Positions 1 to 28,077 of a stretch of 64,000 nucleotides of DNA are shown here, one piece after another. A model generated the notes under the pieces. That model saw only the letters and a list, made by a program, of their open reading frames with translations, did no database searches and had not been told where the DNA came from. A program made the position numbers and the translations under genes. The stretch covers positions 32,001-96,000 of the IMG/VR virus record IMGVR_UViG_3300023174_000048. One strand, 5' to 3'. Position 1 is the first letter of the stretch; every line of letters starts with the position of its first letter. Source of the DNA: a virus (Duplodnaviria; Caudoviricetes).

Positions 1-159
1 TATGAGAATATGTCATCTTATGGTCATAAAATGTCATTTTGGCAGAAATTAAGGTATATTTATCAGGTTTTAATTCATAATCGCCCATACTCTGATCAAA
101 TTATCCTTAATAAAGAGCAACTCAAAGACCTTGGTATGTTTATTAATGGGTGTATATAA
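1..159 (+). CDS. 3' end of hypothetical protein (truncated by window start)
   Basis: Frame 1 open from position 1 to TAA at 157-159 (YENMSSYGHKMSFWQKLRYIYQ...GCI*). Confidence 0.6.
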   Translation, partial: YENMSSYGHKMSFWQKLRYIYQVLIHNRPYSDQIILNKEQLKDLGMFINGCI

Positions 160-160
160 T
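149..160 (+). promoter_or_regulatory. GGTGTA-type upstream motif (GGTGTATATAAT)
   Basis: Recurrent motif about 35 nt upstream of ORF 194; includes TATAAT at 155-160. Confidence 0.45.
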
Positions 161-193
161 ACTGTCTCTTAAAATACTATCAAGGAGGCTATT

Positions 194-379
194 ATGATAA
201 TGAAAAACTATGTTACTGATGAATTAATCAATAAAGTATATCATCTAACTAAGGCTCTTAATCAGGCAGAGTCGATTATTAAAACTCTTGAAGTAGAGAA
301 TGATAATCTTAAAGAAACATTATCGTTAATATATGATAGAGAAAATTTAGTAAACAACGACTTTTTAGTAGAGGTATAA
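194..379 (+). CDS. small coiled-coil hypothetical protein
   Basis: GGAGG SD at about 184-188; heptad-like LNQAESIIKTLEVENDNLKETL. Confidence 0.7.
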   Translation: MIMKNYVTDELINKVYHLTKALNQAESIIKTLEVENDNLKETLSLIYDRENLVNNDFLVEV

Positions 380-380
380 G

Positions 381-566
381 ATGAGTCGCCTAGCCAAAAA
401 TAGTCATGACAAAATGATATTTGGAGTTTGTGGAGGACTAGCAAAAGCCACAGGCATAGATTCGTCACTAATAAGATTAGGATTCGTAGTTGGAGCAATT
501 TTTACTGGAAGTATTTTGTTTTGGATTTATCTTTTACTTGGAATAGTTCTACCTATTGACGAATAA
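381..566 (+). CDS. pspC: PspC-domain membrane protein
   Basis: RL.K...DKMIFGVCGGLA...GIDSSLIRL...WIYLLLGIVLP matches the PspC family pattern. Confidence 0.85.
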   Translation: MSRLAKNSHDKMIFGVCGGLAKATGIDSSLIRLGFVVGAIFTGSILFWIYLLLGIVLPIDE

Positions 567-1129
567 TGATTTATTTTATATCTGATACCCACTTTGGACA
601 CAAGAACATTGTGGGATATTGTAAAAGACCATTTACTGATACTCACGAAATGAATAAGACCATTATTGATAATATCAATAGTGTTGTTAAGCCAAAAGAT
701 ACTCTTTATTTTCTTGGAGATTTTTGTCATAGAGGCGGAGATCCTAAGAAATATCGAAAACAAATAATTTGTGAAGATATTCATGTGATTCTTGGTAACC
801 ATGACAACGAAGATAAATTTAGTGAAAAAGATTTTTCTTCCATAGGACTAATGAAAGAAGTGATTCATTGTAATCAAAAGATTATTCTGTTTCATTATCC
901 TATGAGAGCATGGAATAAAAGTTATCGTAAAAGTTGGATGCTGTATGGTCATGTTCACGGCAGACTTCACAATGAGGATGAATCACTAGGACGCTTTACG
1001 CTTGATGTGGGCGTGGATAATAAAAGGGACGGGGTTGGATTTGGTACTCCGTACAGTTTTAAAGAGATTCAGAAACTATTTGGCGACAGAGAGAAAAAAT
1101 TCAAGGTCGCCCAGTTGACAAGCCGATAA
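566..1129 (+). CDS. calcineurin-like metallophosphoesterase
   Basis: Motifs SDTHFGH, LGDF, LGNHD, HYP, YGHVH. Confidence 0.9.
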   Translation: MIYFISDTHFGHKNIVGYCKRPFTDTHEMNKTIIDNINSVVKPKDTLYFLGDFCHRGGDPKKYRKQIICEDIHVILGNHDNEDKFSEKDFSSIGLMKEVIHCNQKIILFHYPMRAWNKSYRKSWMLYGHVHGRLHNEDESLGRFTLDVGVDNKRDGVGFGTPYSFKEIQKLFGDREKKFKVAQLTSR

Positions 1130-1142
1130 AGGATGTTAGAAT
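1115..1142 (+). promoter_or_regulatory. sigma70-type promoter, 16-bp spacer, extended -10
   Basis: TTGACA (1115-1120), 16 nt containing CCGATAA, TGnTAGAAT (-10 at 1137-1142). Confidence 0.75.
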
Positions 1143-1148
1143 GAAGGA

Positions 1149-1188
1149 GTCAAGCGAGAGTATCAGTCATGCGACTGACTCGCAAGAC
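1149..1188 (+). promoter_or_regulatory. structured 5' leader hairpin
   Basis: gtc-aa-GCGAG-agta-TCAGTC-atgc-GACTGA-CTCGC-aa-gac nested stems beginning at the predicted start site. Confidence 0.55.
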
Positions 1189-1217
1189 AAGAATTGGAAA
1201 TGATTTGGAGGTTGATT

Positions 1218-1499
1218 ATGGCTGAAGTTACTACGGTTGATAAGCAGACTCGTATTCGTTGCAGTGATGAGCAGTTTCTTGAGGCAGTTTTTTCTAGCAA
1301 GACTTATGCTGAGATTGCTAGTAAGACTGGTCAGAAGGTTGCTAGTACGATGGCTCGTTATGCCCGTACAAAGTCCGCTCTGACAAAGAAGGGTATTGAA
1401 CTACCCGTTATGGAACGTGCGAAGCCAACCAAGACGGTTGACAACGTAGAGGCTATGGCAGAGGTTGTTCGTCGCCTCAAGGCTCATGCGAACGGTTGA
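1218..1499 (+). CDS. small basic protein, probable HTH DNA-binding
   Basis: GGAGG SD at 1207-1211 favours ATG 1218; TYAEIASKTGQKVASTMARYARTK is HTH-like; no TTA codons. Confidence 0.65.
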   Translation: MAEVTTVDKQTRIRCSDEQFLEAVFSSKTYAEIASKTGQKVASTMARYARTKSALTKKGIELPVMERAKPTKTVDNVEAMAEVVRRLKAHANG

Positions 1500-1510
1500 T
1501 TAAAACCAAA

Positions 1511-1592
1511 AGGTGATCGGCTACAATAGTTTAAATGGTTGAGGCACACAAAGATTCAACCTCAAATCATTGATTGTTGTAGTCGGTCACTT
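1511..1592 (+). ncRNA. long imperfect RNA hairpin directly 5' of tRNA-Leu
   Basis: AGGTGATCGGCTACAA (1511-1526) pairs fully, with G-U wobbles, to TTGTAGTCGGTCACTT (1577-1592); inner AATGGTT/AATCATT and TGAGG/CCTCA stems. Confidence 0.55.
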
Positions 1593-1596
1593 ATAT

Positions 1597-1671
1597 GGGA
1601 GCGTAGTCCAATTGGCAGCAGACAAAGGACTTAAAATCCTTCCAGTGTGGGTTCGAGTCCCACCGCTCCTA
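1597..1671 (+). tRNA. trnL-TAA: tRNA-Leu (anticodon TAA), short variable loop, CCA not encoded
   Basis: Acceptor GGGAGCG/CGCTCCT, D-stem GTC/GAC, anticodon stem AAGGA/TCCTT with loop CTTAAAA, T-arm GTGGG-TTCGAGT-CCCAC, discriminator A. Confidence 0.93.
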
Positions 1672-1711
1672 TTTTTAGAACGATAATTATCTTTAAGAAT
1701 AAGGAAATAAA

Positions 1712-1933
1712 ATGAGCAAAAATGTTTTAGAACTATATAAGATTGGTAGTAGGGTTAAGTTGACTGATGATGTTTATGGAACAATTGAAGAAATAAATAT
1801 TTTTGGAGATAATTCTGTTAGTTACAAGTGTGGTTGGTGGAACGGACGAAGTTATTGTGCCGAACACTTTGCCCCTAATGCTATTGAAGTTGTTATGCCA
1901 GAAAAATTTAAGATAGGTTTCCACAATGAATGA
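1712..1933 (+). CDS. hypothetical protein (small beta-rich, SH3/KOW-like)
   Basis: AAGGA SD; YKIGSRVKL...GTIEEINI pattern. Confidence 0.65.
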   Translation: MSKNVLELYKIGSRVKLTDDVYGTIEEINIFGDNSVSYKCGWWNGRSYCAEHFAPNAIEVVMPEKFKIGFHNE

Positions 1934-2336
1934 AAACTCTAATCCACTAGATTATCTAATCGAACTTTGTGAAAAAGCCGTTGATTATGGCACAATAACA
2001 AGATTTACGATTCTTAATGCCAAGAATGAATTAGCAAAATTGAGGCAATCAAAAATAGATTTGGCTCAAGATGCTCTCAATGCTAATAAGAATAGTATTG
2101 ATGATAATAATCGTTGGTTAAGTTGTGAAAAAGAATTGGTTGCCCTAAAGGAAAAAATCAAAACTATTTTTAGTCAACCTGTCGCCTATGGTTTAATTAA
2201 CGATAGACATGATCTATATAATCTAACTTTGCATTATAATAGGTTTGATGACAAAGATAATAAATTAATACCGTTATACTCAAATAGAGAAGAATTCTTA
2301 CAAGGGGATTGGCAAAGTGGTAAGTTATCCAAATAG
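1926..2336 (+). CDS. hypothetical protein
   Basis: Translationally coupled ORF with coiled-coil centre. Confidence 0.65.
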   Translation: MNENSNPLDYLIELCEKAVDYGTITRFTILNAKNELAKLRQSKIDLAQDALNANKNSIDDNNRWLSCEKELVALKEKIKTIFSQPVAYGLINDRHDLYNLTLHYNRFDDKDNKLIPLYSNREEFLQGDWQSGKLSK

Positions 2337-2655
2337 GTATTTTAAGGGATGGTGTTCTAATGAAGGTAATCCACGATCTCATATTCTTCATTATCATATT
2401 CTCACTATTAGAGATATTAGTGACTATAATGGCGGATTCATCCCAGAAGAAGTAAATTCTTTAGAAGAATACTTTAATGTTGATGGTATAGGAACTGATG
2501 AACCATACTATATGGTTACTGGAACATTCAAGTTTGATTTTGCACGAACTCCTATTAAAATTCTGGAAACAAATGAACTAAAAACTGCCATTGATATTGT
2601 TGAACAACTAACAGGGAATATTATCAGAGAAGATGAAGTATACAATTCACGATGA
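2317..2655 (+). CDS. hypothetical protein
   Basis: Overlapping ORF in the run of + strand genes. Confidence 0.65.
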   Translation: MVSYPNRYFKGWCSNEGNPRSHILHYHILTIRDISDYNGGFIPEEVNSLEEYFNVDGIGTDEPYYMVTGTFKFDFARTPIKILETNELKTAIDIVEQLTGNIIREDEVYNSR

Positions 2656-3163
2656 TGGTTTTGGTTGTTTTGAAGAAGGTGGTTGTGCTGAATTCTATTG
2701 GATAAAAGAGGATAAAACTCTTGGCTTCAAACAATTTGGTAGTAAAAAGACTGCCATTATCGCTTACAATAAACAAAAATTGTTGAGTAAGTTTGATCTT
2801 GCTCCTAAAGTTGTTGGTAAAATTACCAAATTAAAATATGAGTGGGGCGACGATACTGGTTGGGGATATGTTACAGAACGAGCAAAAGTTCTTGACGAAG
2901 AGGTGATGAAAAAAAGACTACGAGATATTCAGAATCTTGTGGAAACTATTGAAAATAAAACCCGCCTAAGATTTTGGGATTGCCATTATTGGAATGTGGG
3001 ATATGTTAAACGAAATAATAAGGCTAAATTAGTTTGTATTGATACTGGGCCTGAGAGTTTTAGTAGTATTGCAAATGCTTGGGGAATGGCAACTCCTGGC
3101 CCAAAATGTGGTTATTGTAATAGATATCAATGCCATTGTAGTGATGCTTATTGGTGTGATTAG
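2633..3163 (+). CDS. minimal protein-kinase-like (PKL) fold protein
   Basis: Gly loop EEGGCAEFY, Lys in GFKQF, catalytic loop WDCHYWN, DFG-equivalent IDTG; Cys-rich C-terminus. Confidence 0.65.
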   Translation: MKYTIHDDGFGCFEEGGCAEFYWIKEDKTLGFKQFGSKKTAIIAYNKQKLLSKFDLAPKVVGKITKLKYEWGDDTGWGYVTERAKVLDEEVMKKRLRDIQNLVETIENKTRLRFWDCHYWNVGYVKRNNKAKLVCIDTGPESFSSIANAWGMATPGPKCGYCNRYQCHCSDAYWCD

Positions 3164-3165
3164 AT

Positions 3166-3173
3166 GGTGTATT
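3166..3173 (+). promoter_or_regulatory. GGTGTATT motif
   Basis: Intergenic, about 10 nt before the AAGGAG SD of ORF 3196. Confidence 0.5.
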
Positions 3174-3195
3174 CTTTATGTAAAGGAGTACTATT

Positions 3196-3531
3196 ATGTC
3201 CAGAGATTTTGACGATATTTCAAAACAAATAATTCAACAGAATAAAGACCTAAAGAGTAGAGATAATTCTATATCTAAGGAGATTTCTGATCTTAAAAAA
3301 AGTGTAAAAAACATAGAAAATAAGATACGATCTATGGATGATACTCTTATTAAGTTATTTGATATATTGAATACTATTACGGTCTTTATTGAAGACGCTG
3401 AATCAATAAACGATTCAGAGGATGAAGAAGATTGGACTCCTTATGATGAAAGAAGTTTTGCGTATGATGATGAGGATGACGATGATGACGAAAATGTTGA
3501 TGGTTGGGGCATTAGAGAGGATGAAAGTTAA
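3196..3531 (+). CDS. coiled-coil protein with acidic tail
   Basis: AAGGAG SD; heptads followed by a D/E-rich C-terminus. Confidence 0.75.
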   Translation: MSRDFDDISKQIIQQNKDLKSRDNSISKEISDLKKSVKNIENKIRSMDDTLIKLFDILNTITVFIEDAESINDSEDEEDWTPYDERSFAYDDEDDDDDENVDGWGIREDES

Positions 3532-3773
3532 TGGCTAGTTTGGCACTGTTGGTATCACTAATGTTTTTATTTGTGGTGCTACTTGGGCCAGCAACATGGT
3601 TATTAAGTAAATCAAGATTCATTCCAAAATTCGTAATATACATAATGGGACTTTTGAGCATTTTAATAGGAATATATTGGTGTTTTTTACCAGTTAATTT
3701 GCTCAGATTTTTTGGTTTGCTTACGGCATATTTAGGATGGATGGCGATACAATCTAAAGATAGAGGGGCTTGA
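3531..3773 (+). CDS. small membrane protein (about 3 TM)
   Basis: Three hydrophobic stretches; start overlaps upstream stop. Confidence 0.7.
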   Translation: MASLALLVSLMFLFVVLLGPATWLLSKSRFIPKFVIYIMGLLSILIGIYWCFLPVNLLRFFGLLTAYLGWMAIQSKDRGA

Positions 3774-3797
3774 CAACCGATAACACTGTGGTATGAT
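3770..3797 (+). promoter_or_regulatory. sigma70-type promoter, 16-bp spacer, extended -10
   Basis: TTGACA (3770-3775), ACCGATAACACTGTGG, TATGAT (3792-3797); upstream of rIIA. Confidence 0.75.
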
Positions 3798-3843
3798 TGG
3801 GTTATCACAGGGAACGATTCACAGGACATTTGGAGACATAAAG

Positions 3844-6504
3844 ATGAAGTTGGCAGATCGCGTTATTGAGACTCATAGTGCTGGTGTTCGTAGCGAGTCT
3901 GGTTTTACAATCGCTCAGACTAGCAAAATGTTTAAAATCCTTTCGGACTCTCTTTATTCTGATAAGGTTATGGCAGTTATTCGTGAACTGTCTACTAATG
4001 CTTATGATAGTCATATTAGTGCTGGCAATAAGAATCCCTTCAAGGTGATCTTGCCAACATCTGCTAATCCGTCTTTTACAGTGCGTGATTATGGCACTGG
4101 GCTTAGTCAGGGCGATATGGAGAACCTGTATACAACCTACGGTGCTTCTAATAAGAATGATAGCAACGATTTTGTTGGTTGTCTTGGTCTTGGGAGTAAG
4201 AGTCCGTTTGCTTATACCAAGAGTTTTACTACTAGTTCTTATTTTAATGGAATTAAGTATACCTATATTGCCGCTATTGATGATAGTGGTGTTCCTACTC
4301 TGAATCTTTTTAATACTTGTGAAACTGACGAGGCTAATGGTCTTGAAATCAGTTTTGCTGTTAAGAACCATGATTTTAGTGAGTTTACCAACAAGGCTAT
4401 TAGGATTTTCCACTATTTCCGAATGAAACCCATCATTGAAGGTGGACTTGGAAATAATCTGCAAGATCATAAGTATAGCAATACCAATATTGTTATTAGT
4501 GGTAACGGCTGGAGAGTTTGCAGACTCAATAATGATACCCAGTATTACCCTAATAATTATCATCGTATTGATAGTGGTGTTGTTGCTATCATGGGTAATA
4601 TTGCATATCCTGTTCAGACCGCTCAGATTATTGGTCAGGAAAAGGAAGACCAACCAGATCATATTGCCAAGTGGAATAGGGCTTTCCAGAAGGCCGATAT
4701 TGATTCGTGGAAGAGTTTTGTTACTGAGATCATTAATTCTGGTCTTTATCTGGAACTTGATTTTGGTATTGGCGAACTGGAAATGGATGTTTCCCGTGAA
4801 GGTTTGCAGTATACCAAGAGTGTTATTAAAACTCTGCGTCAAAAGACTCAAGAGATTTATCTTGAGATGAAGGACGAATTTAGTAAGAAGATTTCTGCCG
4901 CCACAACCAAGATTGAGGCTATCACAACATATTATCAGATGAATGAATTGTCTGGTGGATGGGGTGTTGGTGCATCTTGGACTGATCCTAATGGTAAAAA
5001 CCACAACATTAATAGTGGTGCTGACCTTGAATATAAAATCAAGGCCGGTAAGAACCTGTACGTTTTTAACTACAAGAGCAGCGGGTATCGTTCACGACGC
5101 CTTATTTCTCTTACAGATAAAATCCATCACGATACTCTTACTGGTAAGGGATATTCTTACTGGAATGCCCAAAAGAAGAATGGGAAAATTGCTTTTTTTG
5201 TTTGTGATGTTAAGGGTGAAGAAACTGCCAAGAAGATTGTGACACGTTATTGTGGTCAAAATGATTGTTTTGCATATATGATTATGGACACAAAGGATCA
5301 TACTCAAAGCGACAAGGGTTTTGATGATCTGATTAGTGATGTTGGAGAGTCGAATCTGCTCAAGGTTTCTGACTATAAGCATCTTACTCAAAGTTCTGGC
5401 CCTCGTAAAAGTGGAGTCAGAAATAGTAATGGTAGTGTGAGCGATCAAGACATATTCTTTATTCATGGTCAGTCTAAGGATTCTGGTAAACTTAGTGTCG
5501 AATATAATGATGCTCTAAGTTTGAAAACTCTTACAAGTGACGAACTAGATGAATTGAGTGATAGTGATTCTATCATTTATGTTCCTATTCTTCGTTATCA
5601 AAGCACACCAGAGTTTCCTAAGATCAATAAGATTGTATCGCTATTTGATAATGAGAATATCAAGGGACTGTTTGGAAATGTGAAGGTTTATGCTATCAAG
5701 AGCAATTTTGTAGCAAAAATGACCAGTGAAGGACACAATCTTGTTGACTTTAACACTTGGTTTAAGAAGATTCTCTCAACAAAGATTAAGAATTATTTTA
5801 ACAATACCAATGAGTACAACTCTATTGTTGAATTCTACAAAAAAGAATTTATCAGTAAGGATGGTGATAACGATAATTATTATTACAATCATGGAACATT
5901 GGTTAGCCAGTTCTCTTGTCATATGTTGAGTATTTTTGGTCTTGAATATAAGAAATATATCAAGAACACTGAACTATGTAGTATTATTGATAGTTTTCTT
6001 GTAATGGAATTCTTTGCTGATACTATGCACAGAGCAACTTTTGATCTGAAACGATTCTCTCAGACTGAATATTTTGACCATATTAACTCTTTGCTAAAGG
6101 ATCGAGGTATTGATAATCTTGATAGTAAAGAACTCAAGAAGAAAAATGTACAGTATAACACTCTTATAAATATTCAACATCAGATGTTTGACTATTTTGA
6201 TGACACTGAGGAATATACTAAATTGTTTAAGTCTGATACTAAAGTAATCAAGTATAAGTTGACCAAAGCGGCAGACTTGAAGAAAATTCTTAAAGTCGAG
6301 GTTGACAAGAACCCGATGTTGAAGTATATTATGGGAAGCAACCAGAATAACGGCAGTATTAGAGATTTGGACAGCAAGAATAATCCTATCTCTCAATTTG
6401 CTGATAATTATTATGGTAAGAGAAATAATACTATATGGGTTGAGACTATGGATAGCGACAAGATTGATTTGTTTAAGATTCAATTGAGTAGTTTGATCAA
6501 GTAA
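3844..6504 (+). CDS. rIIA: RIIA-like protein (N-terminal GHKL ATPase)
   Basis: GHKL motifs IRELSTNAYDSH, VRDYGTGLS, GCLGLGSKSPFAY; directly upstream of rIIB; ATG 3844 follows GGAG. Confidence 0.9.
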   Translation: MKLADRVIETHSAGVRSESGFTIAQTSKMFKILSDSLYSDKVMAVIRELSTNAYDSHISAGNKNPFKVILPTSANPSFTVRDYGTGLSQGDMENLYTTYGASNKNDSNDFVGCLGLGSKSPFAYTKSFTTSSYFNGIKYTYIAAIDDSGVPTLNLFNTCETDEANGLEISFAVKNHDFSEFTNKAIRIFHYFRMKPIIEGGLGNNLQDHKYSNTNIVISGNGWRVCRLNNDTQYYPNNYHRIDSGVVAIMGNIAYPVQTAQIIGQEKEDQPDHIAKWNRAFQKADIDSWKSFVTEIINSGLYLELDFGIGELEMDVSREGLQYTKSVIKTLRQKTQEIYLEMKDEFSKKISAATTKIEAITTYYQMNELSGGWGVGASWTDPNGKNHNINSGADLEYKIKAGKNLYVFNYKSSGYRSRRLISLTDKIHHDTLTGKGYSYWNAQKKNGKIAFFVCDVKGEETAKKIVTRYCGQNDCFAYMIMDTKDHTQSDKGFDDLISDVGESNLLKVSDYKHLTQSSGPRKSGVRNSNGSVSDQDIFFIHGQSKDSGKLSVEYNDALSLKTLTSDELDELSDSDSIIYVPILRYQSTPEFPKINKIVSLFDNENIKGLFGNVKVYAIKSNFVAKMTSEGHNLVDFNTWFKKILSTKIKNYFNNTNEYNSIVEFYKKEFISKDGDNDNYYYNHGTLVSQFSCHMLSIFGLEYKKYIKNTELCSIIDSFLVMEFFADTMHRATFDLKRFSQTEYFDHINSLLKDRGIDNLDSKELKKKNVQYNTLINIQHQMFDYFDDTEEYTKLFKSDTKVIKYKLTKAADLKKILKVEVDKNPMLKYIMGSNQNNGSIRDLDSKNNPISQFADNYYGKRNNTIWVETMDSDKIDLFKIQLSSLIK

Positions 6505-6540
6505 TTCACAAGGTAACTAAAAACAATAGGAGTTTATATC

Positions 6541-7419
6541 ATGAGTGTTCCGTTTATGTTTGTTGATGGTAATCTGACGGTTGTGCTGAATAATAAGAGT
6601 TTTCAGGTTCTGCCTGACCACCTTAATTATAAGATGATTCTGGAGGCACTTCCCTCCGCAACTTCTGATGAGTTGCTTGAAATGATTGATATTGAGAAGG
6701 CAGTTGCTACTTTTAGCGATGGTCTTGTTGAGATCAAGAATGGTCAGGTAACTTATGAGGGTGAGGTTGTTCATGGGTCGATTAGCAAGAGAATTCTGGA
6801 GTTTATGAGCAAGGGTCTGCCTTTTCAGCCTCTTGTTAATTTCCTGAATAATCTTATGGAAAATCCTAGTATGCAGAGTCAAAAGGAACTCTACGATTTC
6901 CTTGAGCATGAGCATCTGCCTATTACTGAGGATGGTTATTTCCTTGCCTATAAGGCAGTCAGAGCAGATTACATGGACAAATATCGCGGAGTATTTGATA
7001 ATCATGTTGGTAATGTTTGCGAAATGACCCGATCAAAGGTTGATGATGATCGTGGTCGAGGTTGTTCTAATGGACTTCATGCTGGTGCATTGAATTATGT
7101 GGCCGGTTATGGTAGTCTGGAAAGTGGTGATAAGATTGTTATCGTTAAGATTAATCCTGCTGATGTTGTGAGTGTTCCTAGTGATTGCAACTATGAGAAA
7201 CTTCGCACTTGCCGATATGAAGTTGTCGGAGAGTATCAAGGCGAACTACTCAAGCCTCTTTATTCATCTGTCTTTAGTGAGGATGATTACGAGGACGAGG
7301 ACGAAGATTATGATAATGATTATGATTGGGGATGGAATGAGGATGATGACGAAGAGGCTGAAGAGGCTTATGCTGAAGATGACGAGGATGATGAGTTTGA
7401 TAACTCTTATCCTGGTTGA
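6541..7419 (+). CDS. rIIB: RIIB-like protein with acidic tail
   Basis: LYDFLEH..LPITEDGYFLAYKAV, CSNGLHAG, VKINPADVVSVP.D....KLRTCRYEVV. Confidence 0.9.
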   Translation: MSVPFMFVDGNLTVVLNNKSFQVLPDHLNYKMILEALPSATSDELLEMIDIEKAVATFSDGLVEIKNGQVTYEGEVVHGSISKRILEFMSKGLPFQPLVNFLNNLMENPSMQSQKELYDFLEHEHLPITEDGYFLAYKAVRADYMDKYRGVFDNHVGNVCEMTRSKVDDDRGRGCSNGLHAGALNYVAGYGSLESGDKIVIVKINPADVVSVPSDCNYEKLRTCRYEVVGEYQGELLKPLYSSVFSEDDYEDEDEDYDNDYDWGWNEDDDEEAEEAYAEDDEDDEFDNSYPG

Positions 7420-7428
7420 TTAAAATCG

Positions 7429-7493
7429 AAGGAATAGTCTGGGGACTGGATTAGTTAGTGCTAACTCTTAGGGTTCGATCCCCTAATTCCTTT
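7429..7493 (+). ncRNA. minimal tRNA-like RNA (intact acceptor and T arms, degenerate D and anticodon arms)
   Basis: AAGGAAT/ATTCCTT 7-bp stem stacked on TAGGG-TTCGATC-CCCTA; internal AGTC/GACT and AGTTAG/CTAACT hairpins; followed by a T run. Confidence 0.55.
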
Positions 7494-7568
7494 TTGCCGA
7501 CCATGACAGTAGCGTTTACTATCCCGGCTTATTTTGAGGTTGTTTACAATTACAGGTAACGGTGAAAT

Positions 7569-8747
7569 ATGTTTAAGATGGAACTTGGTTTTAATCCGTA
7601 TGATAAGGCTAATAGCAGTGCTGAAAAGCGTTATGCTAATTCGTGGAATGGACTGCAAGAGCAGTTTCTAAATTCTTTTAATCTAAATGCTGGTCATATC
7701 TTTTGCTACAATGGAGATCCTCGTAGAAAGATTAGTAGCATGAAACATACTAATGATCTTGTTGAGGTTCGTAATGCTAACGAGAATAGCAACTCTGATG
7801 CTTATTTCTATGTTAATGGTGGACGAAAGCAGTATGCTATCAACACTATTGCTTGTTGCTTTGTGGATATTGATGCTGGACGAGATGATGCTGGAAACTA
7901 TCTACCTTCAAAAGAGGTTATGAAGTTTAAGCAGTCCTCTCTTGACAAGATCAATAATTTTCCTGTTAAGCCAAGTTGGGTAGTAGATACTCGTAATGGT
8001 TATCAGATTTATTGGATTATGGATGATCAAAGTCGAACTCTGATTAATCAAACCACATGGAATGGTATTCAGAAGAAACTGGTAAATTACTTTGGTGGAG
8101 ATGCACGAGCCATCAAGATCAATCAGATTTATCGAGTTCCTTATACTTGGTGGCGTAAGTGCTGGGAAAAGAAGGCGTCTTACTTTACCAGTATTCTGAA
8201 CGGCTCAACTGGTCAGAGCGTTAATGTTCAAGATTTAATCTCTGCATTAAATGGTCAACCAGCAACAGTAACCATTGTTCCTAATGCTACTAGTGACGCT
8301 TGGTTTGACCAGTGGAGAAAAACCTATAAGAAGTCTGATGCTACTGGACTTCCAGTAACTGTTGATGCTGCTACAAAGATTCTGAATGAACTTAATAGTC
8401 AGAGGGCTACTTATACAAATAGCAGTGCTGATTATTGTGGTCAAAAGAACTCTATGAGTAGTGCTTGGGCGTCTTATAATCAGACTCCAAATAGTGACAA
8501 CGAGTATCTTTCAAAGGTTTATAACATCAAGTATGAAAAGGCTTATGGTGATCCGTCGCCGGTATTGCCTTCTCATGCTGGTGACAGTGGTTTAGTTTTG
8601 AGTGGGGAGCAGGCCAAACTTTTAAAAACGGTGGTCGAGTACCTCAATCAAGCGTCCACAGCGTTGTATTTCAGCAACAACCGATTCCTTTCTGGTGCTG
8701 CCAGAGACTTGGCAAGCCAGATTAGTGATAAATTTTGTGTGGGTTGA
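7569..8747 (+). CDS. RepB-like DNA primase (AEP superfamily)
   Basis: YFYVNGG, FVDIDAG (DxD), PSWVVDTRNGYQIYW, D...KINQIYRVP. Confidence 0.75.
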   Translation: MFKMELGFNPYDKANSSAEKRYANSWNGLQEQFLNSFNLNAGHIFCYNGDPRRKISSMKHTNDLVEVRNANENSNSDAYFYVNGGRKQYAINTIACCFVDIDAGRDDAGNYLPSKEVMKFKQSSLDKINNFPVKPSWVVDTRNGYQIYWIMDDQSRTLINQTTWNGIQKKLVNYFGGDARAIKINQIYRVPYTWWRKCWEKKASYFTSILNGSTGQSVNVQDLISALNGQPATVTIVPNATSDAWFDQWRKTYKKSDATGLPVTVDAATKILNELNSQRATYTNSSADYCGQKNSMSSAWASYNQTPNSDNEYLSKVYNIKYEKAYGDPSPVLPSHAGDSGLVLSGEQAKLLKTVVEYLNQASTALYFSNNRFLSGAARDLASQISDKFCVG

Positions 8748-8749
8748 AA

Positions 8750-9160
8750 ATGACAGACAAAGATCCAGAAAATAATGATCCTTACAAATTCTACTTTCAG
8801 ATAGATACTGAATGGGTCAAGAAATATATGGATAGTCTGATTAATAAGATAGAATATAAATGGATAACTAAGGAAGTTATAGAGGATGCTTTAAAGAACC
8901 TACCTAACTATAATACTCCGTTACTTCCAGATGGATTTTCTCCGATTGCGTTACCTGTGAGTAGTTGGCTCTCCAGTACAGTGGACGATAAAAAGTCCCT
9001 GTACTTGGGGAACAACTATTGGAATGAAGGAATATGGAAAATGAAGTATTTTGTCTATAATAAACTACAGAAAGATTATGAATTACATTTACAAGCTCAT
9101 GCTAAACATGTGGTTAGTCAGCCAAGATATTACGAATGTTTATTTGAAATACTTAATTAG
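8750..9160 (+). CDS. hypothetical protein
   Basis: ORF; ATG 8750 follows the primase stop. Confidence 0.65.
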   Translation: MTDKDPENNDPYKFYFQIDTEWVKKYMDSLINKIEYKWITKEVIEDALKNLPNYNTPLLPDGFSPIALPVSSWLSSTVDDKKSLYLGNNYWNEGIWKMKYFVYNKLQKDYELHLQAHAKHVVSQPRYYECLFEILN

Positions 9161-9168
9161 GATATTGT

Positions 9169-9612
9169 ATGAAAGATAAATCGTATATAATTCACGACAT
9201 GGATGCGTTTACTAATCATGTTAGAGTATTAGTGTATAATGCTTTTGGTAGTGGCTTATCAGAAGATAAAGAAGACAAAGAAGATCCAGAAATTGACGAT
9301 CTAATCTCTGTTAAGCCAGAAGATAAGGACGAGTTGGATAAAATATTATCTTTTGAAGAGTCTCTAAATATAGTAAATCATATAGTTAAAAAACAAAAAA
9401 ACAAAAAGACAAACAATATACGATACGTGGTAAATGATAGTATATTTTTGCAAGTATTAGAGTCTCTTAATGATAGAATGGTAAGCAACCTACTAAATAA
9501 TTTGGTAAACAAAGGAATTCTTGAAACAGGATTTGATAATGAAACTAATGATTTCCTGTTTTGGATAAAAGACAATGATAACAAAAAATCTGAAAAGCCA
9601 GAAACCGATTGA
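9169..9612 (+). CDS. hypothetical protein (acidic; possible winged-helix C-terminus)
   Basis: AGGA SD; LNNLVNKGILETGFD resembles a wHTH end. Confidence 0.65.
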   Translation: MKDKSYIIHDMDAFTNHVRVLVYNAFGSGLSEDKEDKEDPEIDDLISVKPEDKDELDKILSFEESLNIVNHIVKKQKNKKTNNIRYVVNDSIFLQVLESLNDRMVSNLLNNLVNKGILETGFDNETNDFLFWIKDNDNKKSEKPETD

Positions 9613-9985
9613 AATTGATGCTTCATTTAAATATAAATGTCCATCTGAGGATTGTGAAAATGAACATTGGCTCTTTCTAAGACAAGCACAGGTTAAGAAC
9701 TTTAAGATAGTCTGCGAGTGCGGTTTGATTTTCAAACCTAAACAGGTCAAAAACATTAAAATAATTTACGAAAAGCCCACAAAGAAACGAAAGATCGCAG
9801 AAGATATTGTGGATAGTATTCCTGTTGATCTATTGAACCAGTGTGCTAAGATTCTGTCTGGTTACGGATTTGATTTGGATGAGTCTAAAGAATTGATTAA
9901 ACAATCATATAATTCTTGCAAGACTAACGATATTGGTTTATTAGTTAAAAACGCTTTAAAATCTTTTGGAGAAAAAAATGGCTAA
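9575..9985 (+). CDS. Zn-ribbon protein with RuvA domain III-like C-terminus
   Basis: CPSEDC...CECG Zn ligands; C-terminal QCAKILSGYGFDLDESKELIKQS...DIGLLVKNALKSF resembles RuvA_C; overlaps the ruvB start. Confidence 0.6.
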   Translation: MITKNLKSQKPIEIDASFKYKCPSEDCENEHWLFLRQAQVKNFKIVCECGLIFKPKQVKNIKIIYEKPTKKRKIAEDIVDSIPVDLLNQCAKILSGYGFDLDESKELIKQSYNSCKTNDIGLLVKNALKSFGEKNG

Positions 9986-10889
9986 AGGTATTCGACCATC
10001 AACTTTTGATGAAATCATTGGACAGGATAATGTTAAGGAGCGTCTGCGAGTGTCTGTGATGGGTTGTAAAAACACAGGCACGGTGATGCCTCACGTTTTA
10101 ATAGACGGCCCTCCTGGCCTTGGTAAGACCACCATAGCGAGTGCCATAGCAAACGAGTTGGGGGTGAACCTTTATACCACCAATGCTGCAAATATACGAA
10201 GCATAAAAAACATTATTCCATATATTATGGGGATTGAACCAAGATCAGTTTTGTTCATTGATGAAATCCATAGATTGCCTAAAATTGTAGAAGAATTTCT
10301 ATATCCAATCATGGAAGATTTTGTACTCAATATCACTGTAAAAAATGATGAGGATAAAGACGTTCCAGAAACTATTGATCTTCCAATGTTTACTGTTGTT
10401 GGTGCTACAACCAGTGGTGGAAGTTTAAGTCAACCATTTTATGATCGCTTTTGCATTAAAGAACATCTATCTTTTTACAATACAGATGATCTAGCTAAAC
10501 TAGCAAGGTTGAATTCGTCTAAATTAGGAGTAGTCATAGAGGACTCAGACCTCTTAGAGATTGCACGACGAAGCAAAGGTACTCCAAGAATTCTAAATGC
10601 TAGATTGCAATGGTATAAAAATTATATGTCTTGTAATCCAGATAAAACTATTTCTGTGGATGAGATATTTAATGTTCAGGGTATTGATAATAATGGTCTT
10701 GATGTTTATGATAGACTATATATTGATATTTTGAAAAAGAGTAAGGGATCTCCACTTGGACTGAAAGCAATATCTTCAATGACAGGAATTGCTATTGAAA
10801 CTATTGAGAATAGTATTGAGCCATTTCTAGTTAGACGAGGATATGTAATCAGAACTCAAAAGGGGAGAGTTTTAGGATCTCAACCATAA
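9978..10889 (+). CDS. ruvB: Holliday junction branch migration ATPase RuvB
   Basis: IRPSTFDEIIGQ, Walker A GPPGLGKT, Walker B LFIDEIHRL, GATT, PFYDRF, GTPR, IEPFLV..GYVIRT.KGR. Confidence 0.93.
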   Translation: MAKGIRPSTFDEIIGQDNVKERLRVSVMGCKNTGTVMPHVLIDGPPGLGKTTIASAIANELGVNLYTTNAANIRSIKNIIPYIMGIEPRSVLFIDEIHRLPKIVEEFLYPIMEDFVLNITVKNDEDKDVPETIDLPMFTVVGATTSGGSLSQPFYDRFCIKEHLSFYNTDDLAKLARLNSSKLGVVIEDSDLLEIARRSKGTPRILNARLQWYKNYMSCNPDKTISVDEIFNVQGIDNNGLDVYDRLYIDILKKSKGSPLGLKAISSMTGIAIETIENSIEPFLVRRGYVIRTQKGRVLGSQP

Positions 10890-10926
10890 TAATTTGATAT
10901 CAATAAATATATAATGCTAAGATACT

Positions 10927-10952
10927 AAAGGGGCCTTTTTGGCCCCTTTTTT
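10927..10952 (+). terminator. intrinsic terminator
   Basis: AAAGGGGCC-TTTTT-GGCCCC followed by TTTTTT, after ruvB. Confidence 0.85.
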
Positions 10953-10963
10953 ATTGGTATGGT

Positions 10964-10970
10964 GGTGTAA
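10964..10970 (+). promoter_or_regulatory. GGTGTA motif
   Basis: Immediately after the terminator, about 20 nt before ORF 10989. Confidence 0.45.
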
Positions 10971-10988
10971 TCTACCTTAGAGGATACT

Positions 10989-11300
10989 ATGGCAGATACT
11001 ATATACATACTATTAATTATATTGATACTATTAAATATAGTATTTTTCTTTTTGGGATACTTCCTTGGTCGATTAAATAGTAGTCAGACCACTATTGGGA
11101 GTCAGCCGGTTTCATTTTTTGATAAGAGCAAATCAAATAATGATAATTCTATTAATAAAATTACTATTGACGAGAGCAAGTATGTAACAGATATTAAGAC
11201 ATCTGGTATGGAGAAAAAATACGAAAATCTTGGCGAAACAAAAATATCTACAGAAAATATAGAGTCTTCAATTAATAAACTTAAGAATATAAAGAGGTAA
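10989..11300 (+). CDS. N-terminally membrane-anchored protein
   Basis: Hydrophobic residues 5-26 followed by a polar domain; upstream of the actin-like gene. Confidence 0.75.
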   Translation: MADTIYILLIILILLNIVFFFLGYFLGRLNSSQTTIGSQPVSFFDKSKSNNDNSINKITIDESKYVTDIKTSGMEKKYENLGETKISTENIESSINKLKNIKR

Positions 11301-11305
11301 TATTT

Positions 11306-12307
11306 ATGGGAAAAGGCTTAGATGTTGGAACTAGTTATATTGTATTATCTCAAGACTCTTCTAGTGGCGTTGTATACAAAGATTTTAGAGATGCTTTTTA
11401 TATTATCAAGCCAACCACCCCAGTTTCAACAAAAATGATTGAAAAAGGATTATCTGGAAAGATTTTTATTAAAGATACTGATGGTTCATTCATTATCTTG
11501 GGGAAAGATGCTATTGAAAAGGCTATTGAACGTAATGACAACGCAAAACGACCCATGAGCAAAGGCGTCGTATCCGCCAAGGAAAAGGATGCCAAGCGTG
11601 TTCTAGCCTTCATTTTAAAAGAAGTGGCCGGACAGGCATCAGAACAAAATGAGAAACTCGTATTCTGCGTCCCAGCACAACCAGTTGACCAAGAAGATGA
11701 GGATTTTGATGTTGGATATCATGAGGATGTAGTCAAGGCTATTTTGGGTGAATGTGGATATGATGCTAGAGCAATTAATGAAGCAGAGGCTTTATGCTAT
11801 GCTGAATTAGGCGACGAAGATTACACTGGAATAGCAGTATCATGTGGGGCAGGAATGACTAATGTGTGTGTGATGTTAAATGGCGAACCAACAGTTGTAT
11901 TTAGCACAACAAAATCTGGAGATTGGGTTGATCGTATGAGTGCGGTAGCCACTGGCGAAAAAGATAGTGTTGTGCAAGCTGAAAAAGAAGGTGGTGGATT
12001 TGTGATTGGTGAACATAATGATAATCCAGTTTTATCAGCAGTATCTTCATACTATGAGAGATTAATCGATTATACAACAAAGCAATTAACTGTTGCATTA
12101 TCTGGTCATAAGGCTTTGCCAAAATTTAAAAACCCATTAACTATTGTGGTTGCTGGAGGAACGTCTCAAGCAAAAGGATATATTGAGATTTTTACTAAAA
12201 AATTATCAGAAAATAACTTTCCTTTATCAATTAAAGTAGTCAAGCATGCTTCAGACCCCTTACATGCTGTATCAAAAGGATGTTTAATAGCAGCAAAGGT
12301 ATTATGA
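11306..12307 (+). CDS. actin-fold ATPase (MreB/ParM/FtsA/MamK superfamily)
   Basis: Phosphate-1 GLDVGTS, connect-1 INEAEAL, phosphate-2 VSCGAGMT, adenosine VVAGGTSQAKG, connect-2 DPLHAVSKG. Confidence 0.85.
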   Translation: MGKGLDVGTSYIVLSQDSSSGVVYKDFRDAFYIIKPTTPVSTKMIEKGLSGKIFIKDTDGSFIILGKDAIEKAIERNDNAKRPMSKGVVSAKEKDAKRVLAFILKEVAGQASEQNEKLVFCVPAQPVDQEDEDFDVGYHEDVVKAILGECGYDARAINEAEALCYAELGDEDYTGIAVSCGAGMTNVCVMLNGEPTVVFSTTKSGDWVDRMSAVATGEKDSVVQAEKEGGGFVIGEHNDNPVLSAVSSYYERLIDYTTKQLTVALSGHKALPKFKNPLTIVVAGGTSQAKGYIEIFTKKLSENNFPLSIKVVKHASDPLHAVSKGCLIAAKVL

Positions 12308-12308
12308 G

Positions 12309-15300
12309 ATGGTTGACAATATCAAAATTATTGGATTAAATCCTAATCAAAGTCCAACGCCAACAAAAAGTGTTACTCCAACACCTACAAAAACACCTAC
12401 AAACACTCCAACAAATACTATAACTCCGACAAAAAGTCAAACACCAACAGCAACCCCGACAGTAACATCAACAGTAACTCCCACCAAAACAGCCACAAGA
12501 ACACCTACAAAATCTTTATGTGTATGGAATGGATATGGCCAAGTATGGTTAGCTAACTGTAATAATGAGAAAATTAATGTTCGTTGGATTAGAACTTCTA
12601 ATAATAACAACTGGACTGGAACATTTAATTATGGCTCAAACAGCATAACATCAACAATAACATATAATGCAAATTTATTAAATTTAAAAAATACAAGTTG
12701 CAAAGATTTATGGACAGTAACTTTTAATTTTAGTTGTGTTCCTTATGGTCAATCTTTAGCATATGATTTACCTCATTGTTCATGTAATAGTCCTGGAATT
12801 ATTGTAATTAGTAGTTCAGCATCTAACTGTATGTGTACTACTCCAACACCAACTCCAACAATTACAGCAACAAATACTCAAACACCAACCCCCACACCAA
12901 CAAATACTCAAACAAAAACTCCCACACCAAGCAATACGGTTACGCCAACTCCCACACCAACAACAACCCAAACAAAAACTCCAACACCAAGTAATACTGT
13001 TACGCCAACTCCCACAATTACTGTAACACGAACAAGCGGTCTGACAAAAACGCCAACCCCAACACCAACAGTAACTCCAACTACAACACAGTGCTATCCA
13101 GATGTTCCTACGGGATTATTAGCAGAATGTGGTTCATGTGAGTCTGGCTCATTAATTAATTTAAGTTGGTTCCCTCCAACATCATCTTGTTTAAATGGAT
13201 TTGACGTACAAATGTTGGTAAATAATACTATTGTATATAATACATATGTAGTCGCGGGGCAAAATAGTATTGGAATACCATTATTTTCAGACAATAGAAC
13301 TTACACATTTAGAATACGATCTTCTTCTGGCTTTGGAGGTAATAATTTTAGTCAATGGATAGAATTCCCTGGATCCTTTACTAATAATATCTGTTGCCCA
13401 ACTAGTACTCCAACTCCAACACCAACACCAACTAAAAATCTAAAGTGTAATAATTCATGGCCAAATATCCCAAGTGCGGGAGTATCGCCGGGATCTATTA
13501 TTGGATTAACATCTGGAGCTATATGGGCAGCTGTTTCTTACTGGAAATATCCATTTAGATTTATAAAAGATAGGAATGTAACAAACGACCAGAGTACTAA
13601 TGGTATAAATTTTATTATTGGAGAACAAATATTAGTAAGAGTAGCACCGTTTTATGATGTCCTTCTTGGTATTCCAGGAAATTATATAATAAATAATATT
13701 GTATATAATGAAGATTATTCAGGAATGTTTACTGCTGACACTCTATATGTCTCATGTTTAGATACTGATTTAACTTTTACAGATACTTATGTATTAAATT
13801 TTATTGATGAATCACAGCCAAATTATACTGATACCCAATATGGCAATCTGGTTGGAAATCTCTGGCCTGTTGATGTAAAATACTTCAACGAATCAGTATC
13901 ACCATCGGCTCGTAAATTTGTGGCAGCTTTTGACATTGATACCAATTATGAGGTAGCAAATCCATCACAAGGCTGGGGTGAGATTTGGCCGTCTGGTGCT
14001 GTTGGCGACATAGCAAATAGTCTATGCTCTTTACCAATACCCAAACAAAACATTATTCAAACTTCTAGACCAACTCCAGAATCACAAAATATATTTTTAA
14101 ATTATGTACAAAATCAAATCGTAAACACATTGCAATGGGGTACATTTGATGAAATAAAAAGTAATTCTCCAAATGCTAAATTTGTTCTTATTGTGGATGA
14201 TAGCGGATCTATGACATATGAGTTGGTCCAAACTGCTCTTGAATCTTTAAAAAGTATTATACTTGCAGCTGGCCTTGATTGTGTAATATTAACACTATGT
14301 AAAAACGAAAGATGGCTACAGTGGTCTGCTTACGTTTTAAATAATATAACAACTATTCATGACCCTAATTTTAAAGAAGATATGTGTAACTGTTCATTAC
14401 GCTTTGAAGATAGTGATGGATGTTCAGTTATGGTTGAATTTACCAATCCATATGATGGATCTATTATACGCCAAGATGGATCTGCCGCAAGTCCACTACA
14501 ATATTGGTCTATACATCCTATGTTATCTTCTGGAAATTGTCCAGCACCTTTAGATAGGAGAGATCCATTTGATGCTACTGGTATTACAATATTAAGTTAT
14601 AGGATATCCAATCTTATTTCTCCTGTTCCTGGCGGATCTTCCTCAGATACTGATAATATAAATATTACAGCAAAATTAAAATGTAAAAATGGTACATTTA
14701 TGCTTGATGTAGTATCTGATTATGCTTTTTGGGAAACTTGTACTGGTGGAACCAGTAGTAGTGATCATGCTTATTTATATTGGGATAATATAGAAATACC
14801 AGTTAATGGTCTTGGCTATCCAGATGGTGTTGTTAATTTGGGAGATCCAACTAGAGCTGAGACATGCTTTAATCAAGATATAGAACTCAAACCATATGAT
14901 AATATTAATATTAAATTTACTTATATTGGAACAGATATTATTCCAAATAATCCATGTGAACCATATAGAAATTCTGCAAATTTTAATAGTTCTGCTGACT
15001 GGGGTGGTCAAAATGGTAATATTACTACAGTAGGAACTAACGGTAGCCCTAGTTATTATGGTACATATGATCAAAGTGGTAATGTGAATGAATGGATAGA
15101 TGGAATAGGAGAAAAATTAGTTCGTGGAGGAGGCTATCCAGGATTATTAAGTAATCAAAACTCTGCAAATCGTGGACAACGTAGACAAACGTTTAATTCT
15201 TCGCAGGGCTCTTTAGGTTTTAGAGTAGCGTCTAGCTCACCAGGACCATCATTAGTAAAAATAGGAAATCCGGGTAATATTAATGATTCAACAGGATACG

Positions 15301-26314: not shown

Positions 26315-27256
26315 TTATATGATACCTGTTTTTTCTATAAAGCTATTTAATATTTTTAATTGATTTTCTAATTTTACATTATCAAAAAACCATTGTTGTG
26401 CATTGTGTGTGACGAATTGTATTTCTTCTATAGAGATATTTTCAATTATATCTTTTATTTTATTTAAAATATAGCTTTCTTCTTTTTTATTATATATTTT
26501 ATAATATATGTCATCATCAATTATTGTTTTATAGTGATAATTTTCAATTAATGGATTATGAGTTATAATATTTAATTTTTCTCTTAAACATAAATTTTTA
26601 ACCCCAAAATACTCTAAGTCTCTATAACAGATTTGAGCGGCCCCATTGAGACTTAGTCCATATCTATATCCAGAGATATATTTATAGTATGTGTCTTTAT
26701 CTTGATAATCATTTGAATTAGATTTATTAAGTATATGAAAAAAATTATTTTTAGTTAGAACATTAGAATATTGTTGCCTAATTCCATATAGAAGTCCATT
26801 AAAACAACAATTATTTTTTTTATTAGTGATATCTTGATATTTTAATATTCTATTATAGTCATTATAGTTTTCTAAAATATAAAAAGAAGGATGTATAATA
26901 AAATTTTTATTTGCATGTAAATTAAATACATTTGCTGTTAAATTTGATGTAATTCCAAATGCTTTGATATTTAATTTATCTATTGCAGAGTCATGCTCTA
27001 GAATGGCTGGGGCATAGTCTGATAAATTATGTACAAAAGTTTTATTGTTATCAGTTATAATTAAACTGTATATGCTGAAAACAGAAGGCAGATTATTAAT
27101 ATATTCAAAAGATTCATTATGTTGTTTTGCTAAGTCTTTAATGTGAATATATGTTATATCAATTTTTTTATTGACTAAATATTCATGAAATGTTTTGTAT
27201 AGTTCTCCAACATACCAATTAGACTGGTATGGGTCATATGATATTGTTATAGTCAT
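26315..27256 (-). CDS. putative GT-B glycosyltransferase
   Basis: C-terminal YRYGLSLNG....CYRDLEYFG resembles the GT-B donor-binding region. Confidence 0.55.
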   Translation of the reverse strand: MTITISYDPYQSNWYVGELYKTFHEYLVNKKIDITYIHIKDLAKQHNESFEYINNLPSVFSIYSLIITDNNKTFVHNLSDYAPAILEHDSAIDKLNIKAFGITSNLTANVFNLHANKNFIIHPSFYILENYNDYNRILKYQDITNKKNNCCFNGLLYGIRQQYSNVLTKNNFFHILNKSNSNDYQDKDTYYKYISGYRYGLSLNGAAQICYRDLEYFGVKNLCLREKLNIITHNPLIENYHYKTIIDDDIYYKIYNKKEESYILNKIKDIIENISIEEIQFVTHNAQQWFFDNVKLENQLKILNSFIEKTGII

Positions 27257-28077
27257 ATATAAGATATCGGAATATTATTAATAGTAGAATAAAATAAAAA
27301 ATTAGATATTCTATTCCACGACGTTGCAAAATATACTCTATTAGAATTGGCTAAAATTAATATTTCTAGTAGAGACAACATTGCTCTTTCTTTTAAAATC
27401 TTTTGATCAGATATTCTTTGATTATGATATATGTGATTTCCTTGTGTATCTTCCATTGGTATATTTATACTAAGAGTTTTAGGATTGTTTATTAATTTTT
27501 GTTTAAGAGTATAACTATTAGAGCAAATAAATATATTATTGTTGTTATTATATATATTTATTATTTCATTTATTTTATTTTCATATAAATCAATATTATC
27601 ATCACAATCATTAGGTCTTAAATAAATAGAACTATAGTTAGAATAATTTAAGTTTTGATACATATTATGTATTTGTTTAGATAGCTTAATATTATTTTTT
27701 AGTGGTAAATTACCATATGTTAATCCTGACTGAGGGAAAATTTCAATTTGAAGATTATTAATATTATCTAAAAATAAATCCCACCAATGTAATCCTGGTT
27801 TCGATGCCCCATAGGATATATGTTTAATTTCAAACCCATTTATATTTTCTATTGGTTCATTTATGAATTCTACAGAATTGAATATTTTAAAATTATCTTC
27901 ATCAAAGAAATCAAAAAACTCAAAATTTTTATAGTACATGTTATTAGTAGTATTTATCTTTAAATCTACCTTATAGCCATTAGAAACAAGAATCTCTGTA
28001 TTGTGTAAATATTCTGATATTGCAACAATTGCATCTCCTAATCCAGAATTAAAAGTATGTTGAATGATAGCATTCAT
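27253..28077 (-). CDS. putative fucosyltransferase-like GT-B protein
   Basis: N-terminal SGLGD, IYLRPND, IFICSNS, ILANSNRVY...SNF. Confidence 0.55.
   Translation of the reverse strand: MNAIIQHTFNSGLGDAIVAISEYLHNTEILVSNGYKVDLKINTTNNMYYKNFEFFDFFDEDNFKIFNSVEFINEPIENINGFEIKHISYGASKPGLHWWDLFLDNINNLQIEIFPQSGLTYGNLPLKNNIKLSKQIHNMYQNLNYSNYSSIYLRPNDCDDNIDLYENKINEIINIYNNNNNIFICSNSYTLKQKLINNPKTLSINIPMEDTQGNHIYHNQRISDQKILKERAMLSLLEILILANSNRVYFATSWNRISNFLFYSTINNIPISYI

Follow-up and report, generated by a model that had tools for sequence, protein, structure and literature searches.

Genes and promoters at the locus

The stretch of DNA analysed here, 64,000 nucleotides long and hereafter called the window (positions 32,001 to 96,000 of IMG/VR record IMGVR_UViG_3300023174_000048), is part of the AT-rich genome (32% GC) of an uncultured phage from lake water, whose relatives are abundant in IMG/VR, with contigs of up to 206 kilobases (kb). 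Our subject is a small class of genes near its beginning, rIIA and rIIB among them, which nearly dispense with the leucine codon TTA and the isoleucine codon ATA, together with the promoters in front of them and a phage-encoded tRNA-Leu that reads TTA. In the window the class comprises four genes, all on the + strand: open reading frame (ORF) 1218 (ORF1218; 1218-1499, 93 amino acids), rIIA (3844-6504, 886 amino acids; PHROG 612, E-value 2e-111), rIIB (6541-7419; PHROG 609, E-value 8e-72) and ORF7569 (7569-8747, 392 amino acids), to which no function was assigned. The neighbouring genes rIIA and rIIB are members of their families, with tblastn matches to annotated rIIA genes, and the real start of rIIA is the ATG at 3844, behind a GGAG ribosome-binding site.

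Two promoters of the sigma-70 type, the two best such sites in positions 1-13000, stand in front of ORF1218 and rIIA. The first (1115-1142, +; TTGACA, 16 nucleotides, TG-extended TAGAAT) has 11 of 12 matches to the consensus TTGACA and TATAAT boxes, the score used throughout, and is identical in three relatives (L001, L002 and L009); the second, of the same class (3770-3797, +; TTGACA, 16 nucleotides, TG-extended TATGAT), is conserved in L002. The preliminary description had named these promoters after the heptamer CCGATAA, which indeed sits two to three bases after the -35 box in both of them (1123-1129 and 3777-3783). The heptamer as such is not enriched across the window (3 found, 4.5 expected); what makes it special is its placement in the spacers of the two best sites. 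We therefore describe the class by the consensus TTGACA-N16/17-TAGAAT, often with a CGATAA spacer element. As had also been noticed, a tRNA able to read TTA follows the first promoter: the tRNA-Leu with anticodon UAA (1596-1672, +) begins 97 nucleotides past ORF1218, itself behind promoter 1115-1142.

Codon avoidance and its link to promoters

The absence of TTA from ORF1218, rIIA and rIIB, first seen by reading their leucine codons, was borne out by the counts: TTA encodes none of their 92 leucines (0/4, 0/63 and 0/25, respectively), against 670 of 1457 (46%) in the remaining 74 ORFs of the window (Fisher p ~1e-24). ATA serves for 3 of 101 isoleucines in the four-gene class, all three in rIIA, and for 727 of 1587 in the rest of the window. 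Over the four genes, the share of TTA among leucine codons and that of ATA among isoleucine codons both drop from 0.46 to 0.03, a depletion of about 25-fold which makes these the two most depleted codons of the class. The avoidance is not absolute, since TTA accounts for 4 of 25 leucines in ORF7569 (ATA for 0 of 17 isoleucines) and for 2 of 30 in the DNA ligase gene lying just 5' of the window; one further TTA, in the untranslated leader between the rIIA promoter and ATG 3844, is outside the coding part. Default usage is exemplified by ORF 12309 (12309-18854, +), encoding a giant Thr/Pro-rich protein, for which heavy use of TTA had been reported and where we counted 77 TTA among 129 leucine codons as well as 93 ATA.

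The scarcity of TTA lies at one end of a broader bias against codons that end in A. The share of A at codon position 3 (A3; genes that avoid A-ending codons are called low-A3 genes below) is 0.14 in the four-gene class and 0.38 elsewhere, while positions 1 and 2 are the same; the bias is strongest in ORF1218 (A3 ~0.14). Odds ratios in the class are 0.042 for TTA, 0.036 for ATA and 0.28 for the remaining NNA codons pooled, the last corresponding to about 3.5-fold. In ORF7569, whose homologue in relatives has the same bias, the A-ending share is 0.24 in four-fold boxes and 0.37 in two-fold purine boxes. The effect is bound to the reading frame: in-frame TTA occurs 2.4 times per 1000 codons in the class and 35.5 times in other genes, whereas the other two phases give 47 versus 41 and 29 versus 16 per 1000 (class versus others), so that out of frame the trinucleotides TTA and ATA are not avoided. 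The bias of the class thus reflects selection on decoding, and is neither a base-composition nor a motif effect.

The direction of the shift bears on the earlier suggestion that the usage of these genes fits a GC-rich host, which we could not uphold. The avoided A is swapped for T in four-fold boxes and for G in two-fold purine boxes, the T/C ratio of pyrimidine boxes is constant between classes, and the share of C at position 3 is 0.14 in the class, hardly above the 0.10 found elsewhere; this is not a shift to a GC-rich dialect. The favoured codons of the class are CGT, GGT, CTG, ATC and AAG, and the swap to NNT and NNG would fit a tRNA pool rich in G34 and C34 and poor in U34 species. The genetic code is standard, because in orthologues TTA aligns with Leu in 69% of cases and ATA with Ile in 64%, similar to the other Leu and Ile codons.

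The pattern is old and local at the same time. In 18 relatives whose rIIA proteins range from 99% to 58% identity, rIIA has 0-4 TTA among 62-64 leucine codons and 0-6 ATA, and stretches of a few kb on a single strand contain low-A3 and normal genes in alternation. Replication-strand or regional skew, which the preliminary description had raised as a possible undoing of its proposal, is excluded by this interleaving together with the conservation of rIIA, and recent transfer is very unlikely for the same reasons. Five ORFs on the - strand (3805-5004, 5092-5466, 6094-6483, 6517-7005 and 7033-7239) had been offered as independent evidence; they do exist, and they are the same observation made from the other strand, arising automatically because the sense genes avoid TTA, CTA and TCA. 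As real genes they were rejected: the open stretch is broken at differing places in relatives, the frames are not conserved, and the longest of them has p=0.09 by chance.

The avoidance follows the promoters. Genes 5' of the window were read from two contigs of the same genome type (L002 and L094), where the DNA ligase gene and an Ogg-like glycosylase gene share the bias and lie, like two small ORFs, directly behind TTGACAA...TAGAAT promoters; ligase, the Ogg-like gene, ORF1218 and rIIA each begin less than 60 nucleotides past an 11/12 promoter. Later genes in the same units use TTA and ATA in the ordinary way, and so, for TTA, do six small ORFs at 1712-3773, between tRNA-Leu and the rIIA promoter. 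The statement that genes behind the CCGATAA promoters avoid TTA is accordingly true of the first genes and not of these small ORFs. The per-gene codon counts against promoter class that the preliminary description had proposed were made in G002, a complete relative of 153.6 kb, counting a gene as promoter-near when a promoter lay within 150 nucleotides. Promoter-near genes use TTA for 10.6% of leucines versus 26.8% in others and ATA for 9.8% of isoleucines versus 38.4%; their A3 is 0.19 versus 0.32 (Mann-Whitney p=4e-6), and promoter and low-A3 class are associated with a Fisher odds ratio of 8.7 (p=2.6e-5). More than 20 genes of this genome, each the first behind such a promoter, are under A-ending avoidance.

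Sites scoring 11 of 12 or better number 45 in the same genome, 40 of them on one strand and mostly at 61-106 kb. CGATA occurs in the spacers of 16 of the 45 against 0.8 expected, an enrichment of CGATA(A) of about 20-fold, and CGATA(A) also recurs just 3' of some -10 boxes; a phage regulator could use it as its operator. ORF1218 offers a candidate. It is much more conserved than its neighbours (84% identity in L049, where rIIA has 58%; 688 protein clusters at 84-92% identity), and its structural model (predicted local distance difference test score 75) is helix-rich, with four helices. A fold search of the PDB gave no significant match, and the weak top matches were all helix-turn-helix DNA-binding domains. 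ORF1218 is a candidate early regulator and possibly a binder of the CGATAA element.

Two further elements lie around rIIB. A TTGACA-17-TATATT sequence at 6302-6330, in the 3' part of rIIA, recurs near letter for letter in a relative of 67% identity (G002 near 61013) and may be an internal promoter for rIIB. Between rIIB and ORF7569, at 7429-7493, there is either a tRNA-like element or a terminator-like hairpin, with a stem at 7468-7486 followed by a T-run.

Phage tRNAs, hairpin and intron

The tRNA-Leu(UAA), found by ARAGORN and scoring 57 bits with the Rfam tRNA model, has the discriminator base A73 and a short variable region, and it stands 2-4 kb 5' of rIIA in every relative whose locus covers the region. 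The sublineage of the window has lost the long variable arm, with a tRNA of 75-77 nucleotides versus 83-86 in L032, L038, L043 and L049; A73 and the UAA anticodon are kept. About 4-6 kb before the window start lies a tRNA-Ile with anticodon UAU (L094:6939-7014; L001:1212-1286), and 3' of it a transfer-messenger RNA (tmRNA; L094:7786-8136; L001:2605-2953) with the tag GEVNLALAA. The two most depleted codons of the class are thus the two read by the phage tRNAs Leu-UAA and Ile-UAU. G001, the closest relative record, gave no tRNA match and lacks the early region, for which reason the full tRNA count of the window's genome type cannot be obtained from it.

Every tRNA locus inspected has a promoter of the same class in front, namely tRNA-Ile in L094, directly behind its own consensus promoter, tRNA-Thr in G002 and tRNA-Leu in L032. 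The 153-kb relatives add tRNAs for Arg-UCU, Thr-UGU, Lys-UUU, Gln-UUG, Asn, Ser and Trp within the promoter-dense region; in G002, no codons are more depleted in low-A3 genes than TTA, ATA and AGA, and tRNAs for all three are present.

Between ORF1218 and tRNA-Leu there is a long near-perfect hairpin (1511-1592, +; about 35 base pairs, z-score -8), which ends 3 nucleotides before the tRNA with no U-tract after it. An equivalent hairpin is kept despite sequence changes in L049, L048 and L043, relatives at 58-59% rIIA identity, and in L032 a promoter takes its place before tRNA-Leu. From its structure the hairpin looks like a candidate RNase III-type processing site, splitting the ORF1218 message from the tRNA, and not like a terminator. 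The unit of promoter, TTA-free ORF1218, hairpin and tRNA-Leu is conserved across the clade.

In seven relatives (L002, L013, L018, L019, L022, L038 and L049) ARAGORN misses tRNA-Leu, and in the same seven the Rfam model Intron_gpI finds a group I intron at 54-61 bits versus a gathering score of 50. The intron, about 190 nucleotides long (L002:7569-7757), is absent from the window. Alignments for L002, L013, L019, L038 and L049 place it between U34 and A35 of the UAA anticodon, the position at which the tRNA-Leu intron of cyanobacteria and plastids also sits. Roughly half of the relatives have the phage intron and the others lack it, so that it looks optional. A literature search found no paper describing a group I intron of tRNA-Leu(UAA) in a phage tRNA.

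Proposed temporal codon classes and alternative readings

The best reading of these data, and in our judgement a probable one, is that of codon classes separated in time, as in phage T4, and complemented by phage tRNAs; what is at work is probably ordinary codon adaptation according to temporal class. Selection against A-ending codons, chiefly TTA and ATA, would act on whichever gene comes first after each consensus sigma-70-type promoter, and in the window's genome type this set would consist of DNA ligase, the Ogg-like glycosylase, ORF1218, and rIIA with rIIB. Their messages are presumably the first to be made, by the unmodified host polymerase, and as first-made messages they would have to be read with the host's own tRNA pool, supposedly poor in U34 tRNAs for NNA codons. 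We infer the early timing of the low-A3 class from promoter type and gene identity. The same promoter class would drive the phage tRNAs (Leu-UAA and Ile-UAU, to which relatives add Arg-UCU, Thr-UGU, Lys-UUU and Gln-UUG), with the tmRNA close by, and the remaining genes, left at the AT-rich mutational default (TTA and ATA 46% each), would be read with their help.

In T4, codon classes are reportedly tied to expression time, a result ascribed to Cowe and Sharp in 1991 (J Mol Evol) and to Kunisawa in 1992, and the phage is said to have eight tRNAs. The window phage is not a T4 relative: the nearest cultured matches to its large terminase are those of Bacillus siphophages, at about 25% identity. 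The likeness is one of organization: both phages are AT-rich, with rIIA/rIIB and early sigma-70 promoters, both have tRNAs that read phage-common codons, and in both the codon usage differs between temporal classes, which are here deduced from promoters. As expected of T4-type classes, the window contains two sets of genes with significantly different synonymous usage, and phage tRNAs cognate to codons that are heavy in one set and avoided in the other. The contrast is nevertheless much sharper here, about 25-fold for two codons, and goes with being the first gene after a promoter; only two tRNAs are seen, matching the two most avoided codons. AT-rich cyanophages, too, are said to carry tRNAs for A/T-ending codons on GC-richer hosts (findings attributed to Limor-Waisberg in 2011 and Enav in 2012). 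The tRNA set (Leu-UAA, Arg-UCU, Thr-UGU, Asn-GUU) is alike, as is a phage more AT-rich than its supposed host; the cyanophages differ in lineage, and the host of the window phage is not identified as cyanobacterial.

Early versus late differences in synonymous codon choice, and a role of phage tRNAs in serving late genes, have already been published. Such differences are described and such a role is proposed (Mioduser, Goz and Tuller 2017, PMC5683454; Ross and Doore 2025, on Shigella phage Sf14, PMC12482277) for phages in culture whose hosts are known and whose expression classes were measured, whereas our classes come from promoters. No new regulatory principle is established here. The window is among the cleanest sequence-only cases of class-specific codon choice in a phage, with two codons going from 46% to about 3% in precisely the genes behind a single type of promoter, and with phage tRNAs for just those two codons. 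It provides a practical rule by which the genes of this abundant clade of uncultured lake phages can be divided into an immediate-early and a later set, and it predicts that the host's tRNA pool is weak in decoders of UUA and AUA, a property against which host candidates can be judged.

The leads to the host are in conflict. The sequencing runs containing the phage all come from lake or freshwater metagenomes; 185,579 species genomes yielded no rIIA relative, the one NCBI bin with an ORF1218 homologue is labelled only 'bacterium', and look-alikes of the GMP reductase are mostly viral. The tmRNA tag belongs to a nine-residue GE-x-N-x-ALAA type which, in a scan of the 185,579 species genomes, turned up almost exclusively in Bacteroidota, although the phage tmRNA resembles bacterial tmRNAs weakly, with Saprospiraceae best within Bacteroidota at no more than 32 bits. 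To our knowledge, Bacteroidota do not use TTGACA/TATAAT promoters. On that basis, the canonical promoters and the share of ORFs preceded by a core Shine-Dalgarno motif (36% versus 9% background) argue against a Bacteroidota host. A phage bS21 gene was not found in four relatives. The Bacteroidota-type tag is thus a lead at odds with the promoter type, and we assign no host.

Several points weigh against temporal codon classes. Gene calls were crude, being the longest ATG ORFs. Promoter-like sites at 31984 (12/12) and 58511 precede genes of ordinary codon usage, and neither has a TG extension or a CGATAA element. Low A3 is also seen in 36 of the 180 G002 genes for which no promoter was detected, some of these 36 being probable virion genes. 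Furthermore, many Bacteroidota, the carriers of the tag type, are AT-rich and use TTA freely; if the host were one of them, a phage factor may be what recognizes the promoters, which would then not have to be 'early'. The scarcity of UUA and AUA decoders in the host, finally, is a supposition.

The preliminary description had likened the system to the Streptomyces bldA regulon, and a gate or timer of this kind would mean that the host cannot usefully read UUA and AUA and that genes with TTA and ATA stay silent until phage tRNAs build up, the tRNAs, plus the self-splicing intron in some strains, setting the time at which the middle and late programme runs. A single tRNA-Leu(UAA) could likewise limit the translation of TTA genes, and such a gate would account for the nearly complete absence of TTA and ATA from promoter-proximal genes, for the use of TTA by genes after the first in a promoter unit, and for the clade-wide unit that ends in tRNA-Leu. 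In Streptomyces, however, TTA is a great rarity that marks a handful of regulated genes, and it is the host that encodes the tRNA (PMC2000904); UUA has also been discussed as a possible sensor in Streptomyces phage genes, such as the terminase of phage Hau3 (PMC10732093). Here the tRNA is phage-encoded and TTA, far from being rare genome-wide with few targets, is the commonest leucine codon, at 46% outside the avoiding class, so that a minority of genes avoids what in bldA is the rare mark, and the defining feature of the analogy fails. TTA and ATA stand at the default level set by AT pressure rather than in chosen targets, all NNA codons are shifted, including those without a phage tRNA, the avoidance is incomplete in ligase and ORF7569, and the intron looks optional. 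A bldA-like gate is thus not shown, since TTA is the default, all NNA codons are shifted and the avoidance is not absolute, and we regard it as unlikely.

Plain selection for high expression, independent of timing and of phage tRNAs and favouring host-optimal codons, has a similarly small chance of being correct. CGT, GGT, CTG, ATC and AAG are typical 'optimal' codons, and a weak hint comes from a lake metatranscriptome (one run), in which ORF1218 is the only part of the stretch with a whole-gene contig; these contigs, from a run picked using this stretch, cannot rank genes or give timing. Some of rIIA, some of rIIB and a piece around 9.6 kb are covered as well; 10-20 kb, from whose lack of cover we conclude nothing, is bare except for three weak low-depth bins over the repetitive Thr/Pro-rich gene. 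On the other hand, most late-region genes, presumably including those for abundant virion proteins, keep the A-rich default, the class tracks promoter type, and the codons avoided most are those for which the phage has tRNAs. Nor is the early-gene pattern the generic high-expression usage of an AT-rich host, because in three AT-rich Bacteroidota 33-44% of the leucines of ribosomal-protein operons are encoded by TTA (two genomes of 43-49% GC, 10-14%).

It is also conceivable, if rather improbable, that the phage tRNAs form a clock for translation that is coupled to transcription, a delayed-early switch without a dedicated regulator. Promoter-proximal genes, free of slow codons, would be expressed at once, while the TTA- and ATA-rich genes downstream would stall ribosomes, with tmRNA rescue and polarity, until tRNA-Leu(UAA) and tRNA-Ile(UAU) accumulate; in intron-bearing strains tRNA-Leu would have to be spliced first.

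Still less credit can be given to insulation from a defence, in which host or phage depletes or cleaves U34 tRNAs, the first-needed genes are independent of them and the phage supplies resistant ones. The phage tRNA set does consist mostly of U34 species, the anti-abortive-infection pair rIIA/rIIB is in the class, and the tmRNA is co-located with the tRNAs. We know of no nuclease that targets tRNA-Leu(UAA) or tRNA-Ile(UAU), which speaks against this explanation, as does the inability of the two tRNAs seen in the genome type to replace a depleted pool.

A compositional artefact, be it recent transfer from a GC-richer source, mutation skew by strand or transcription, or hidden antisense genes, might be suggested by the raised GC and G-over-C skew in window positions 1-12 kb and by the long antisense ORFs, and is scarcely credible in view of the frame-specific effect, the conservation of rIIA to 58% identity, the interleaving of affected and normal genes on one strand, the A-to-T swap at four-fold sites, which does not fit deamination, and the lack of conservation of the antisense frames.

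Apart from the codon classes, a local departure in base composition was observed at 26315-28973 (-), where three glycan-related genes have 22-25% GC against 32% for the phage.

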